A stretch of DNA of 64,000 nt, from positions 166,471 to 230,470 of the forward strand of contig JANRKX010000046.1 in NCBI GenBank assembly GCA_033763255.1, given 5' to 3'. How positions within the stretch are numbered: the stretch's first letter is position 1; the number at the start of each line of letters is the position of its first letter. This DNA comes from Acidobacteriota bacterium. GTDB taxonomy: Bacteria > Acidobacteriota > Blastocatellia > RBC074. The notes below the pieces were generated by a model. It was not told where the DNA came from and searched no databases. It saw only the letters and a list, made by a program, of their open reading frames with translations. The position numbers and the translations under genes are program-made. This document shows, piece by piece, positions 42,447-47,042 of this stretch.

Positions 42447-43499
42447 ATGACTAGAAAAATCCTAATTGCATTGATGATCTTGAGCCTGATGCTGCTTATC
42501 GCCACTCCGCCACAATCGGCGCAGGAGCGTCAGGTCGGCACCAGAAAGCCGATTGATCGGTCTGGGGAAAATCGCCAGATGTTGGATATGGCCGGAGCGG
42601 AAAAGTTACGCACCGAATTGGTGACAGCTTTTTCCGAAAGCGAGGCGTTGCTGAAATATCTGGCCGGGTATGACTTTCTTCGACAAAACCAGGCCATGGT
42701 GGGTTACGAAACTGTTGTTGAAGACCTGTCAAAAGAACGTGGGCGCATCGCACAACTGTCTTTGCCAGACATCATCGCTCAAGCCAATGGCTGGCCTGAT
42801 TCCGAAGCTCTCAATCGTGTCATTGAGCTTTCACGGCAGGTAAGGAACGATGAAAAGTTCAGGGAAGTCATTCGCAACGCCGAGCGATTTTCTCAGGCAG
42901 GAGCGCAATCCAGACCGCCGTCAATCAATGGTTTCAATGCACGTGGTGTGATTGCTGCGCCCGCCTACATTCCGCCGGTCTGCAATCATGACGATCCAAG
43001 CAACTATCCATCGGGAACCGATCTTGCCATTGCCAATGGGGTGGCGAGTGGATTGCACACGCTGGCCGATGTGTTACCGGATTTGCTGGGATTTCTGGTA
43101 AGCATTCCGAACTTTGTCAAAATCGCTCTGGTCATTGCCGCAGGCGTAACCGATCAAGTGGCAAATGCGCTGGCGGCAGTGGCCTCTGACGCCGAATACT
43201 GCGAAAAAATCCGTTTTTATATTGAAGACAAACTCGCCAACGAAAACGGCTTTACGGCAATTTTGATGACGGACGATTACTATCTTTCCTTCATGCTGAA
43301 ATCCGTTCGGGCGGCCATGACCAAAGCGACCAGCCAGGGAATTCCGACCAATTGCGGGACAACCCGGCTGGCCGAAGGAGCGGCATTTTTTGATGGCTCC
43401 GACAATTTCAATGGAGCTAACGGAGCCGACCGCGTCACGGCTTATAAAAAACTGCGCGCCGCTTTTCAGAACATTGGCGCTGCTTCTTGTGTGCAATAA
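42447..43499 (+). CDS. Secreted protein, paralog 1 of a 4-member tandem family of unknown function (conserved 4-Cys C-terminal domain ending NIGAASCVQ)
   Basis: Signal peptide MTRKILIALMILSLMLLIATPPQSAQE. A helical N-half, then a conserved C-half (GVIAAPAYIPPVCNHDDPSNYPSGTDL...DAEYCE...TNCG...NIGAASCVQ*). Confidence 0.7.
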   Translation: MTRKILIALMILSLMLLIATPPQSAQERQVGTRKPIDRSGENRQMLDMAGAEKLRTELVTAFSESEALLKYLAGYDFLRQNQAMVGYETVVEDLSKERGRIAQLSLPDIIAQANGWPDSEALNRVIELSRQVRNDEKFREVIRNAERFSQAGAQSRPPSINGFNARGVIAAPAYIPPVCNHDDPSNYPSGTDLAIANGVASGLHTLADVLPDLLGFLVSIPNFVKIALVIAAGVTDQVANALAAVASDAEYCEKIRFYIEDKLANENGFTAILMTDDYYLSFMLKSVRAAMTKATSQGIPTNCGTTRLAEGAAFFDGSDNFNGANGADRVTAYKKLRAAFQNIGAASCVQ

Positions 43500-43598
43500 C
43501 CTTGCGATTGTGACCGAAAGTGTGACTGTGCAACACAGCTTGAAACTCTTGAAAGGAGCAGGCATCTGACGGTAAAGCCCGGATGTCCGACACTGATT

Positions 43599-44654
43599 AT
43601 GACAAGAAAAACCCTTATTTTATTGGTGACAATCGGTTTTCTGCTGTTTGTCTTGCCTGCTCCAAATTCCGCACAGGAACGTCAGGTTAGCAGTCGAACA
43701 GCCACCGGAACCAAGCCCCAGAACACAAGAGCGGTCGTGGATGCGGTTGAAGCAGAGAAGTTGCGGAGCGAAATGATTCTCGCTTATGAAGAAACCGAAG
43801 CTCTGATCAAATTTCTAGCCGGATTCAGCTTTCTTCGGGAAAGCACCGCGATGAATGGATACGAAACAGCACTTCAGAAATTGGAAGTCGAACGCAAGCG
43901 AGTCGAACAAATTTCCATCAGCGAATTCATCGTGCAGGCTGACAACTGGCCGAACCCGAAATTGCTCGACCAGATGATTGAAGTTTCCCGAAACATTCGG
44001 ACGGATACAAAATTTCGGGAAGTCGTTCGCAAGGCGGAACAGTATTCACAATTGACAGGGCAGTCGCGGGAAACTTCATCCCGAAAATCATCGAACTCCC
44101 GTTCGGTTATTGCGGCTCCGGCTTACATCGCGCCGATCTGCAATTTTGACGATCCGAGCAATTATCCGTCAGGAACCGACCTTGCAATTTCCAACGGGGT
44201 TGCGCTTGGGTTGCATGCGCTTGCCGATGCGTTGCCGGGAATCATTGGCTTTCTTGTCGCGCTTGATAATCCGGCCAGGACCATTTTGGTCATTGCTGCT
44301 TACGCAGTGGATCAAGTCACAAACGCATTGAAAGCCGTCGCGGCGGATGCCGAATACTGCGAAGCCATGATTCTGTATATCGAAGACAATCTGGTGCATG
44401 ACGAAGGACACGTTGCGTTGCTGATTACCAACGATTTCTATCTCTCTTATATGTACAAGACCGTCAAGTCGGCGTTGACCAAAGCGACCGGCAAGAGCAT
44501 CCCGACCAATTGCGGAAGTACGCGATTGGCTGAGGCCGCAGCGTTTTTCGATGCGGCTGACTCTTACACCGGCACGGGCGCGCAACGGATGACTGCGTTT
44601 CAGAAACTCCGAGCCGCTTATCAAAACATTGGTGCTGCGGCCTGTGTGCAATAA
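43599..44654 (+). CDS. Secreted protein, paralog 2 of tandem family
   Basis: MTRKTLILLVTIGFLLFVLPAPNSAQE..., same architecture, ends NIGAAACVQ*. Confidence 0.7.
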   Translation: MTRKTLILLVTIGFLLFVLPAPNSAQERQVSSRTATGTKPQNTRAVVDAVEAEKLRSEMILAYEETEALIKFLAGFSFLRESTAMNGYETALQKLEVERKRVEQISISEFIVQADNWPNPKLLDQMIEVSRNIRTDTKFREVVRKAEQYSQLTGQSRETSSRKSSNSRSVIAAPAYIAPICNFDDPSNYPSGTDLAISNGVALGLHALADALPGIIGFLVALDNPARTILVIAAYAVDQVTNALKAVAADAEYCEAMILYIEDNLVHDEGHVALLITNDFYLSYMYKTVKSALTKATGKSIPTNCGSTRLAEAAAFFDAADSYTGTGAQRMTAFQKLRAAYQNIGAAACVQ

Positions 44655-44782: not shown

Positions 44783-45820
44783 TTGAATATGACCAGAAAA
44801 ATCCTTGTCACTCTGGCAACAATCGGCGTTGCGTTATTTGTCTTTGTTTTGCCCCACTCGGCTCAGGAAAATCCTCAAGGCACGGTCGTGTCCGGGGCGG
44901 AAAAGGCGCGCTCCAATTTCCTCAGCGTTTACAGCGAAACGATGGCGCTGCTCGACTTTCTTGGCGAATATGAGTCAATTCGTCAAAGCGAAGCCATGAA
45001 GAATTACCCATTGGTTCGCCGACAACTTTCAGAAATGCATGATCGAATCGGGCGCATGTCTCCTGAGCAGGTGACGATGATGTCACGGGAACTTGACTGG
45101 CTGGACGAACAGTTCGTCAATCGCGTGACAAAGCTTTCTCGACAAATCAGAACCGACGTCCGGTTTCAAGCCATGGTTGAACGTGTGGAAAAAAACGGGA
45201 AGGCTTCAATCGGTCGCCCTCAAAGCGTAGCTTCTGAAACAAAAAGATTCGGAAATTCGCGCGGAGTTATTGCTGCTCCGGCCTATATTCCGCCCAATTG
45301 CAATTACGACGATCCCAGCGATTACCCCTCGGGAGTTGATCTGGGCATCGCTGGCGGAGTGCAGATCGCGTTGAAATTCGCCGCCGATCTGGCGCCCAGC
45401 GAATACCAGACAGCCTGCACGATGGTTCCCAACCCGATTCACATTGCATTCGCCATCGCCGCTGGCGTGGCTGATCTGGTGAAGATTGCACTAGAAGCCC
45501 TGGCCGCAGATGCGGGTTATTGCGAAAAAGTCAGGCTGTTTGTCGAAGACAAGCTGAAAGATGATCGTGGGCTGACGACGATTTTGATGAACGACGATTT
45601 TTACCTGACCTTTATGTTGAAATCCGTTCGTGCGTCCCTGGCCACAGCCACCACCGAAGGCGTGGCGACCAACTGTGGTTCCGCAAGATTGACGGCTGCA
45701 TCGGCTTTCTTTGATGGGTCTGACAATTTCATTGGAGCGAATGGCACTGATCGAGTCTCGGCTTACCGGATACTTCGAGCCGCTTATCAAAACATCGGCG
45801 CAGCTTCGTGCGTGCAATAA
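44783..45820 (+). CDS. Secreted protein, paralog 3 of tandem family
   Basis: MNMTRKILVTLATIGVALFVFVLPHSAQE..., ends NIGAASCVQ*. Confidence 0.7.
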   Translation: MNMTRKILVTLATIGVALFVFVLPHSAQENPQGTVVSGAEKARSNFLSVYSETMALLDFLGEYESIRQSEAMKNYPLVRRQLSEMHDRIGRMSPEQVTMMSRELDWLDEQFVNRVTKLSRQIRTDVRFQAMVERVEKNGKASIGRPQSVASETKRFGNSRGVIAAPAYIPPNCNYDDPSDYPSGVDLGIAGGVQIALKFAADLAPSEYQTACTMVPNPIHIAFAIAAGVADLVKIALEALAADAGYCEKVRLFVEDKLKDDRGLTTILMNDDFYLTFMLKSVRASLATATTEGVATNCGSARLTAASAFFDGSDNFIGANGTDRVSAYRILRAAYQNIGAASCVQ

Positions 45821-45980
45821 GATGTTTAGCGGATGATTGAAAATCGGCCTGCGCCCAGCGCGGCCTTATAGCGATTTATAGGTCGGCCTGCCCGCGCGGG
45901 CGTATCCAATTGCAAACCGCTATAAACTCTCTGAAAGGAGTTTGGCTCCGGCCATCAAACCCGGATGCCAGATACGAACT

Positions 45981-47042
45981 ATGACCAGAAAAATCCTTAC
46001 CGCATTGGTGGCCATCGGCTTTGTGCTGGTTGTTTACCCGTCACCCTATTCTGCACAAGATCGTCAGATTGGTGACCGCCCAGCCATTGGAACCAGATCA
46101 GAGGAAAGCAGAACGGTCATGGATGCAGGCGAAACAGAAAAATTGCGACGCGATTTGATCACTGCTTACGAAGAGAGTGAAGCCTTAATCAGGTTTCTGG
46201 CCGGATATAGTTTTCTTCGGCAAAGCGACCCGATGAAAGATTACGAAGCCGTTTGCCAGAATTTGGCAGCCGAGCGGTTGCGATTGGAACGATTAACCGC
46301 CGCCGAATTGGCGACACAGACCGAAAAATGGCCTTATGCAAGAACCCTTGACCGTTTCGTCAAGCTTTCGCGGAGCATCAGGACGGATGCCAAGTTTCAA
46401 GCTGCGATTCAAAAAGCGGAAAGACATTTCAAGGCAGGCCAGCCCGTTTGGAATTCATCGGACGCAAAAACGATGAATTCTCGCGGAGTGATTGCGGCGC
46501 CGGCGTACATTCCTCCTGTATGCAATTTCGATGATCCCAGCACGTATCCGTCTGGCGTTGATATTGGCATTGCCAGAGGAGTCGCTCTGGCGTTGCATAC
46601 GGTGGTCGAAGCCCAACCTTCAGAGTTCATGATCTTTTGCGTCATGATTCCAAACCCACTCCGAATTGCTTTTGCAATTGCCGCAGGCATCGCGGATCAG
46701 GTTCTGAATGCTCTGCAAGCCATCGCAGCAGATGCCACCTATTGCGAATCCATTCGCCTTTTTGTTGAAGAAGAACTGACAGGCAGCAGTGGAGCAACCA
46801 CGGCGATTTTGATTGATGATGATTACTATCTGACCTTCACCTACAAATCGGTTCAAGCGGCACTGACAAAAGCAACCGGCACCGGAGTACCGACCAATTG
46901 TGGAAGTACACGATTTACCGAAGCGTCCGCCTATTTTGATGGTTCCGGCAATTTTACTGGCACGGGGCCGCAGCGCGTTGTCGCATACCGGCTGCTGCGA
47001 CTCGCTTACAACAACATCGGCGCGTCGGCTTGTGTTCAATAA
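45981..47042 (+). CDS. Secreted protein, paralog 4 of tandem family
   Basis: MTRKILTALVAIGFVLVVYPSPYSAQD..., ends NIGASACVQ*. The ORF track extends the start to 45942. Confidence 0.7.
   Translation: MTRKILTALVAIGFVLVVYPSPYSAQDRQIGDRPAIGTRSEESRTVMDAGETEKLRRDLITAYEESEALIRFLAGYSFLRQSDPMKDYEAVCQNLAAERLRLERLTAAELATQTEKWPYARTLDRFVKLSRSIRTDAKFQAAIQKAERHFKAGQPVWNSSDAKTMNSRGVIAAPAYIPPVCNFDDPSTYPSGVDIGIARGVALALHTVVEAQPSEFMIFCVMIPNPLRIAFAIAAGIADQVLNALQAIAADATYCESIRLFVEEELTGSSGATTAILIDDDYYLTFTYKSVQAALTKATGTGVPTNCGSTRFTEASAYFDGSGNFTGTGPQRVVAYRLLRLAYNNIGASACVQ

Follow-up and report, generated by a model that had tools for sequence, protein, structure and literature searches.

Acidobacteriota are abundant organisms of soils and biofilms, and to our knowledge little is understood of how giant Sec-dependent fibrillar adhesins are displayed by diderm bacteria outside the Proteobacteria. 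The retention of the giant adhesin LapA with LapG, LapD and LapE involves type I secretion, a calcium-dependent cysteine protease and a receptor for cyclic diguanylate (c-di-GMP). A Lap-like Dvh system is also on record (PMC13090378). In another class of fibrillar adhesins the stalk is made of an isopeptide-bonded domain, originally called DUF11 and since renamed CLIPPER (PMC12617251). Here we describe, in a 64,000-nucleotide stretch of a metagenome-assembled genome (MAG) of an Acidobacteriota bacterium (assembly GCA_033763255.1, contig JANRKX010000046.1, positions 166,471 to 230,470; this whole stretch is referred to as the window and supplies the coordinates below), four tandem genes for a family of secreted-type helical proteins that lie between the genes for two giant surface proteins. 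The cassette is a compact and testable module of two giants and one, two or four copies of the new helical family. The explanation that we favour, with a probability of roughly 35%, is a hetero-oligomer of the four proteins, stabilised by disulfides, which uses a conserved hydrophobic hairpin to anchor or assemble the giant fibre proteins at the envelope. Family and cassette are a solid discovery lead, rather than a demonstrated new system.

The four genes follow one another on the forward strand and encode paralog 1 (42447–43499, 350 aa), paralog 2 (43599–44654, 351 aa), paralog 3 (44789–45820, 343 aa from its ATG) and paralog 4 (45981–47042, 353 aa). They are deposited as hypothetical proteins SF097_08820–08835 of an Acidobacteriota MAG, with paralog 1 as MDX2041339. 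The 2248-aa secreted protein giant1 is encoded upstream (35582–42328) and giant2, of about 1860 aa, downstream (47170–52758), both on the same strand, and the ATG of giant2 at 47170 is preceded by a canonical GGAG. A first-pass annotation of the window, made from the letters alone, had begun the third gene at the TTG at 44783; the most likely start is instead the ATG at 44789, where the conserved MTRK begins and from which the deposited 343-aa protein (MDX2041341) is translated. The same annotation had noted a slightly lower guanine-plus-cytosine (GC) content than in the flanks, and the values are 0.50–0.53 over 43–47 kb compared with 0.53–0.59 in the giants.

Paralogs 2–4 are 51–56% identical to paralog 1. 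Open reading frames (ORFs) and alignment agree with the initial description of four consecutive secreted-type paralogs with four invariant cysteines: a signal-peptide-like N-terminus of the form MTRK...SAQ and the residues C179, C252, C303 and C348 are found in all four proteins, which span 343–353 aa. The motifs VIAAPAYIxPxCNxDDPSxYPSGxD and DAxYCE and the C-terminal NIGAxxCVQ are equally invariant, while two others listed with them, DDxYLxF and PTNCGxTR, are only near-invariant, with NDFYLSY in paralog 2 and ATNCGSAR in paralog 3. The proposed division into a divergent N-half and a conserved C-half is seen both in the identity profile across the four paralogs and in the nonsynonymous substitution rate (dN), which is up to 4.4 times higher in the N-half. 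These features suggest that the paralogs are Sec-exported, disulfide-stabilised and extracytoplasmic.

Known relatives were sought in Pfam-A, NCBIfam, PHROGs and PADLOC, using the four paralogs and the remote members of the family as queries. The best matches of the paralogs were at E 0.17 in Pfam and E 0.043 in NCBIfam, both far below the cut-off, and PHROGs gave no paralog match below E 0.17. PADLOC gave nothing credible, its sole match being an isolated 54-residue Csm2 hit (E 3.8e-4) in paralog 1 only. A profile of 69 sequences found nothing significant among the PDB sequences (best E 0.69), and comparison of a model of the protein with the folds of solved structures gave no significant match; trypanosome VSG-like coat proteins are among the best fold matches, though the structural similarity is not significant. 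A word-indexed search returned 72 family clusters, all unnamed or 'hypothetical', and HMMER, run exhaustively with a profile over 1.84 billion representatives, returned only 20 clusters at 50% identity. Wherever the source names an organism it is from the Acidobacteriota or Blastocatellia. Searches of the literature gave no account of the cassette. As the family is without a match to a curated family or a solved fold, and the cassette without a description, we count the family as new at the level of both family and fold and the cassette as undescribed; the first impression of an unrecognised family thus held in every collection searched. The family is narrow in its distribution and known from uncultured genomes only, and we infer its function. 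An enzymatic role is unlikely, as the residues invariant across the family are Arg, Glu, Cys, Pro, Asp, Asn, Gly and Ala, without a conserved His, Ser or Lys signature of the triad type.

A scan of one genome per species identified 10 loci, all in MAGs of Acidobacteriota or Blastocatellia type, and each locus with enough room contains exactly four tandem copies. In a comparison of eight genomes a copy almost always finds its best cross-genome match in its positional counterpart; identities are 58–65% within a position compared with 47–55% between positions. The window paralogs 1 to 4 belong to the orthogroups of positions 1 to 4, respectively, each position being monophyletic in a neighbour-joining tree with the topology ((1,2),4),3. 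The close database matches are likewise split by four position-specific hidden Markov models (24/26/18/27). Between orthologs the ratio of nonsynonymous to synonymous substitution rates (dN/dS, omega) is 0.05–0.12 in the C-half and 0.07–0.35 in the N-half, and the four genes are under purifying selection. The initial idea of a diversifying tandem family is therefore not sustained: on the basis of positional orthology, tree and low dN/dS the four copies are an ancient fixed set of distinct genes. Positional orthology and the tree rule out a recent lineage-specific duplication, and dN/dS rules out diversifying selection.

The functional link to the giants that had been suspected from their proximity is backed by a synteny that is strict in all loci for which context is available and that extends to divergent relatives. 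Giant1 and giant2 flank the four genes in all loci (62–76% and 73–88% identity, respectively), and the order of a BACON/He_PIG giant, the family genes and a CLIPPER giant is constant, with a copy number of one, two or four that depends on the lineage. Divergent relatives have two family copies between the two giants and one locus (L023) a single copy. The remote singletons P0086 and P0087 are each followed by a gene that resembles the N-terminus of giant2, and the P0090 family gene follows a BACON/SBBP giant. The genes outside the block vary: the window and L002 have a Lamin-tail-domain protein and an SPFH protein, L005, L006, L007 and L009 have a GDPD gene and an FHA-trypsin protease, and L003 is different again.

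Two further observations concern these loci. The gene for the FHA and trypsin-like protease, of about 520 aa, lies directly 5' of giant1 in six related genomes (L005 960–2537, L020 2472–4034 and L023 522–2075; also L006, L007 and L009). It is 91–98% identical among four of the genomes and absent from the 64-kb window, and might serve the cassette in regulation or processing. The record titles of L002, L005, L006, L008, L009 and L010, which are third-party annotation MAGs, read 'uncultured Heliomicrobium sp.', a genus of Bacillota. These labels look wrong, because L002, the closest of them, is fully syntenic with the Acidobacteriota window and its SPFH gene is 95.5% identical to the one there.

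To describe the helical proteins themselves we used an AlphaFold2 model built on the 69-sequence alignment, which is all-helical and two-domain, with a mean predicted local distance difference test (pLDDT) of 78.5 and a predicted template modelling score (pTM) of 0.66. A helical N-domain (residues 48–150) is joined by a disordered linker to a C-domain (190–341) in which a short beta-hairpin separates a helix from a second helix of 43 residues. Residues 213–231 are hydrophobic, with a 19-residue mean Kyte–Doolittle value of 2.12, equal to that of the signal peptide. The hydrophobic helix-turn-helix around them (approximately 192–248) is kept in all orthologs with position-specific signatures, and a fifth cysteine within it is conserved at positions 3 and 4 only. 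The odd number of cysteines in these two exported proteins suggests a disulfide between subunits. Remote members retain the first cysteine pair, an ALPxDF turn and the hydrophobic helix, and two of them have a long coiled-coil insertion at the tip of the long helix.

Tandem paralogous genes for secreted all-alpha proteins of about 350 aa, with a conserved hydrophobic hairpin and a short beta-hairpin between long helices, bring to mind the multi-component alpha-helical pore-formers of the ClyA/Hbl/Nhe/AhlABC kind. In such a scheme the soluble helical bundles would hide the hydrophobic hairpin and then build a heteromeric pore stepwise in a target membrane, with the giants as adhesion or targeting devices. 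Copy numbers of one, two or four recall the mono-, bi- and tripartite sets of alpha-pore-forming toxins, and the sole local hhalign match to ClyA sits on the hairpin, although it is not significant. The 69-sequence profile aligned with Escherichia coli ClyA at an hhalign probability of only 0.9%, however, and neither the four paralogs nor ten remote members matched Pfam HlyE or Bacillus_HBL at E<=1. An elongated bundle with a head or beta-tongue of the ClyA type was not recognised by structure comparison, and we reject homology to ClyA on the grounds of the hhalign probability and the lack of a fold match. A pore-former, which we consider quite unlikely, also sits poorly with the strict inheritance of the family alongside two structural giants of high conservation, and with the lack of immunity or variable toxin features.

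The domains first assigned to the giants are confirmed by Pfam and NCBIfam. Giant1 carries an N-terminal CSLREA domain, BACON, immunoglobulin-like He_PIG repeats and a repeated C-terminal module. Giant2 has DUF11 (CLIPPER) and an isopeptide-forming domain, with matches to PF01345 in nine stretches (E 7e-88) and to TIGR04226 (E 5e-20), and classes as a CLIPPER/DUF11 fibrillar adhesin; none of the four paralogs carries any CLIPPER domain. Searches of the libraries recognised no anchor or sorting domain in the terminal modules of either giant. Both giants are evenly conserved from end to end and have no variable tip, which is what a structural assembly would be expected to show.

This whole-length conservation, typical of structural proteins, would also suit helical proteins that are themselves structural subunits of an extracellular fibre or coat (a tip, cap, joint or surface-coat layer), co-incorporated with the giants and with no role at a membrane. 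The fixed subunit set, the purifying selection and the disulfides are in keeping with this, as are the coiled-coil insertions of the two remote members, such as occur in stalk-like proteins, and the presence of trypanosome helical-bundle coat proteins among the best fold matches, non-significant as these are. With no significant structural match, with the hydrophobic hairpin left unexplained and with a route for the proteins across the outer membrane required in addition, we find this role quite unlikely.

The Sec signal peptides and the position of the four genes between two potential clients raise another alternative, namely that the proteins are periplasmic chaperones or secretion pilots that keep the two giants, which are very large and beta-rich, export-competent or guide them to an outer-membrane route, without entering the final structure. 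Bundles of helices that have hydrophobic surfaces occur frequently in chaperones. In Acinetobacter a CSLREA-domain protein is a substrate of type II secretion (PMC9245377), which counts in favour of this alternative. Four distinct subunits in a fixed order would be unusual for two clients, however, the four invariant cysteines together with a rigid, conserved C-domain suggest a structure that is stable in the periplasm or outside the cell, and neither the sequence libraries nor the fold searches revealed similarity to any known chaperone family. We give the chaperone role a low probability.

The terminal modules of the giants hold two sequence features of their own. The C-terminal 300 aa or so of giant2 (residues 1578–1879; 51850–52758) are 53–56% identical to the C-terminus of the Lamin-tail-domain protein encoded upstream (30644–33562, matching residues 665–972 at 32636–33562). 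Both modules end in Cys and have no Pfam, NCBIfam or PDB match, and their likeness suggests that they may be a sorting or docking module in common. The end of giant1 (41072–42325) contains two copies of a module of about 95 aa with the pattern ...NYxAGQxxNxxFTVGLxxDGxFKIxxLATTELVIDVxGY..P, which weakly matches the designed beta-propeller Ika8 (E 1.5e-5) and no Pfam family.

The favoured reading of an anchoring or assembling hetero-oligomer would bring these properties together as follows. Four non-interchangeable all-alpha subunits would be Sec-exported and disulfide-stabilised, the family being a dedicated partner of the two giant fibrillar surface proteins and the whole cassette the functional unit. 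After export the four proteins would assemble into a hetero-oligomer, in which positions 3 and 4 may be linked via the extra hairpin cysteine. The complex would contact the membrane or the fibre through the conserved hydrophobic helix-turn-helix, and would anchor or assemble the giants, above all giant2, at the cell envelope. This reading is backed by the fact that the libraries recognise no anchor domain in either giant.

Several points weigh against it. Oligomerisation, membrane association and contact with the giants are as yet predictions, and the hydrophobic segment could equally lie buried as the core of a soluble bundle of helices. A cassette with one family copy exists in L023, so heteromerisation is not intrinsic to the family. 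In the homolog survey the giants adjoin the family genes except in the remote clade P0085/P0094, which stands alone among housekeeping genes without an intact giant gene adjoining, and the fold is therefore not strictly dependent on giants. A structural relative with a known role may also exist beyond the solved structures that were compared. A more far-reaching proposal is that the proteins are alpha-helical, multi-subunit and membrane-inserting and represent a structurally novel class without relation to the ClyA, colicin or Bcl-2 folds, which would either anchor and assemble Sec-exported giant isopeptide-domain fibres on the diderm envelope by a means not described before or act as a contact-dependent pore-former with the giants for target attachment, the subunits being co-regulated by a leader RNA. 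We hold this to be unlikely as it stands.

The leader in question precedes each family gene. All 32 genes considered (four positions in eight genomes) share the order AAAGGAG, 2–3 nt, an 8-bp hairpin, 12–14 nt and ATG, and the stem consensus is GCATCYGG / CCRGATGC. For paralog 1 the leader occupies 42399–42446 and has CAGGAG, the hairpin GCACCCGG/CCGGGTGC and 12 nt before the ATG; it matches a covariance model of the element at 42399–42452 with 49.8 bits. The leaders of paralogs 2 (43548–43598, AAAGGAG; match 43548–43604, 52.1 bits), 3 (44737–44788, AAAGGAA; match 44737–44794, 49.2 bits) and 4 (45930–45980, AAAGGAG; match 45930–45986, 49.3 bits) each have the hairpin as well, and all four are on the forward strand. 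The leader hairpin is the minimum free energy structure in all four, with AAGGAG and AUG unpaired. For paralog 1 its energy is -19.2 kcal/mol (z -3.45), and the fold z values for paralogs 3 and 4 are -2.35 and -2.32.

RNAalifold predicted no consensus structure from the leader alignment, so the hairpin was assessed by explicit pair counting and single-sequence folding. The stem is paired in 89% of cells, compared with 21–45% when the 3' partner is slid, and four stem pairs have double-sided changes. Matches to the covariance model occur only 5' of family genes, including three copies outside the training set, and none was found before the giants or elsewhere in 267 kb. Rfam 15 had no match at E<=1 at any leader across 35000–53000. 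The element is conserved in nucleotides across paralogs whose proteins share only about 50% identity, and would fit either an RNA function (in translation, stability or processing) or a DNA operator; as the stem sequence itself is conserved, a protein-binding site or DNA operator fits as well. Since each gene has its own leader, coordinated expression of all four would be allowed. A small upstream ORF in the leader was rejected, as only some copies contain the ATG in GTATGCATC. Transcript 5' ends at GAAAGGAG, if found, would indicate separate promoters or processing sites.

Each spacer does hold a hairpin, as first described, but the conserved hairpin belongs to the 5' leader, 12–14 nt before the ATG, and the independent termination proposed for the four units is not supported. 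There are 10 terminator-like sites compared with 7.3 +/- 2.8 in shuffled sequences, and just one (44661) is directly after a stop codon. The stop-proximal segments of the spacers mostly have z values of -2 to +1 relative to shuffles, are not conserved across loci and have no U-tracts. Intrinsic terminators in each spacer were rejected, as U-tracts are absent and stop-proximal structure is mostly near the shuffle level.

The spacer after paralog 3 (45829–45900) contains GC-rich palindromic repeats, GGCCTGCGC...GCGCGGCC and GCCCGCGCGGGC, with a fold z of -3.2, which may be an insertion of the repetitive extragenic palindromic (REP) kind. In L002 this place is occupied by another stable hairpin (z -4.6); no unusual structure is seen in the spacers of L003, L005, L006 and L007. 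Just 3' of the paralog 4 stop, at 47058–47075, lies a perfect 8-bp hairpin, GCTGAATG-AG-CATTCAGC, most of which is repeated in L002. In the 5' region of giant2 the stretch TTGATAATTTTGG...CCACTTGAT recurs in the printed sequences of other loci and may be a promoter or leader of giant2. Beyond the other end of giant2, between its end and the convergent end of a ThiS-ThiF-rhodanese gene, there is a long and near-perfect palindromic hairpin (52813–52903), with sub-threshold Rfam matches on both strands to the model of the plastid psbA 3' untranslated region. It is probably a bidirectional terminator.

Other genes of the window can be dealt with briefly. The ThiS-ThiF-rhodanese gene fuses the three domains in one ORF (52931–54379, reverse strand) and adjoins a PALP (cysteine-synthase-like) gene and a 1-Cys peroxiredoxin gene, a neighbourhood that suggests a sulfur-carrier activation module. 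A release-factor gene with PCRF and RF-1 domains (11909–12850, reverse strand) has a 313-aa ORF that starts at position 29 of the PCRF model, the pattern expected for prfB when the N-terminus is supplied via a programmed +1 frameshift. Genes for extracytoplasmic proteolysis are abundant (3494–4816, 19400–20761, 56917–58620 and 58677–61688, all on the reverse strand): they encode a serpin of bacterial type, two subtilases of family S8 and, beside ECF-type sigma factors, a TPR-CHAT protein. The product of 21933–25166 is a Ser/Thr kinase that contains WD40 repeats.

If the helical proteins do anchor or assemble fibres they would represent a new principle of envelope attachment, and if they insert into foreign membranes they would be a new class of pore-former. 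The family-specific leader is an undescribed cis-element. Its nearest counterparts are 5' stem-loops between the Shine-Dalgarno sequence and the start codon, or hairpins that stabilise mRNA, as in phage T4 gene 38 and the ompA leader. The family leader resembles them in its unpaired AAGGAG, stable hairpin and unpaired start region, and differs in that the distance from AAGGAG to ATG is still about 15–17 nt with the hairpin formed.

With the Lap systems the cassette shares a gene for a giant surface adhesin that adjoins small dedicated partner genes. In several of the related genomes a gene for an FHA-trypsin-like protease also lies directly upstream of the cassette. Type I secretion, the calcium-dependent cysteine protease and the c-di-GMP receptor of Lap systems are not present here, and no Lap component is known to resemble the helical paralogs. 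The similarity to CLIPPER fibrillar adhesins lies in giant2, where a signal peptide is followed by tandem CLIPPER, DUF7619 and DUF7927 stalk domains of isopeptide type; the characterised example has its own OmpA-like anchor (PMC12617251), whereas the libraries recognise none in giant2. The ClyA superfamily (ClyA/HlyE, Hbl, Nhe, AhlABC/SmhABC and YaxAB/XaxAB) is similar to the helical family in comprising secreted all-alpha proteins of about 300–400 aa from adjacent paralogous genes, with a copy number that varies by lineage; a hydrophobic hairpin between long helices may be a further likeness, if the segment is not simply a buried core. The family described here has no sequence, profile or fold similarity to that superfamily, and is set apart from it by a distinct two-domain architecture, four invariant cysteines, a Sec signal peptide on each copy and an obligate link to two giant fibrillar proteins.

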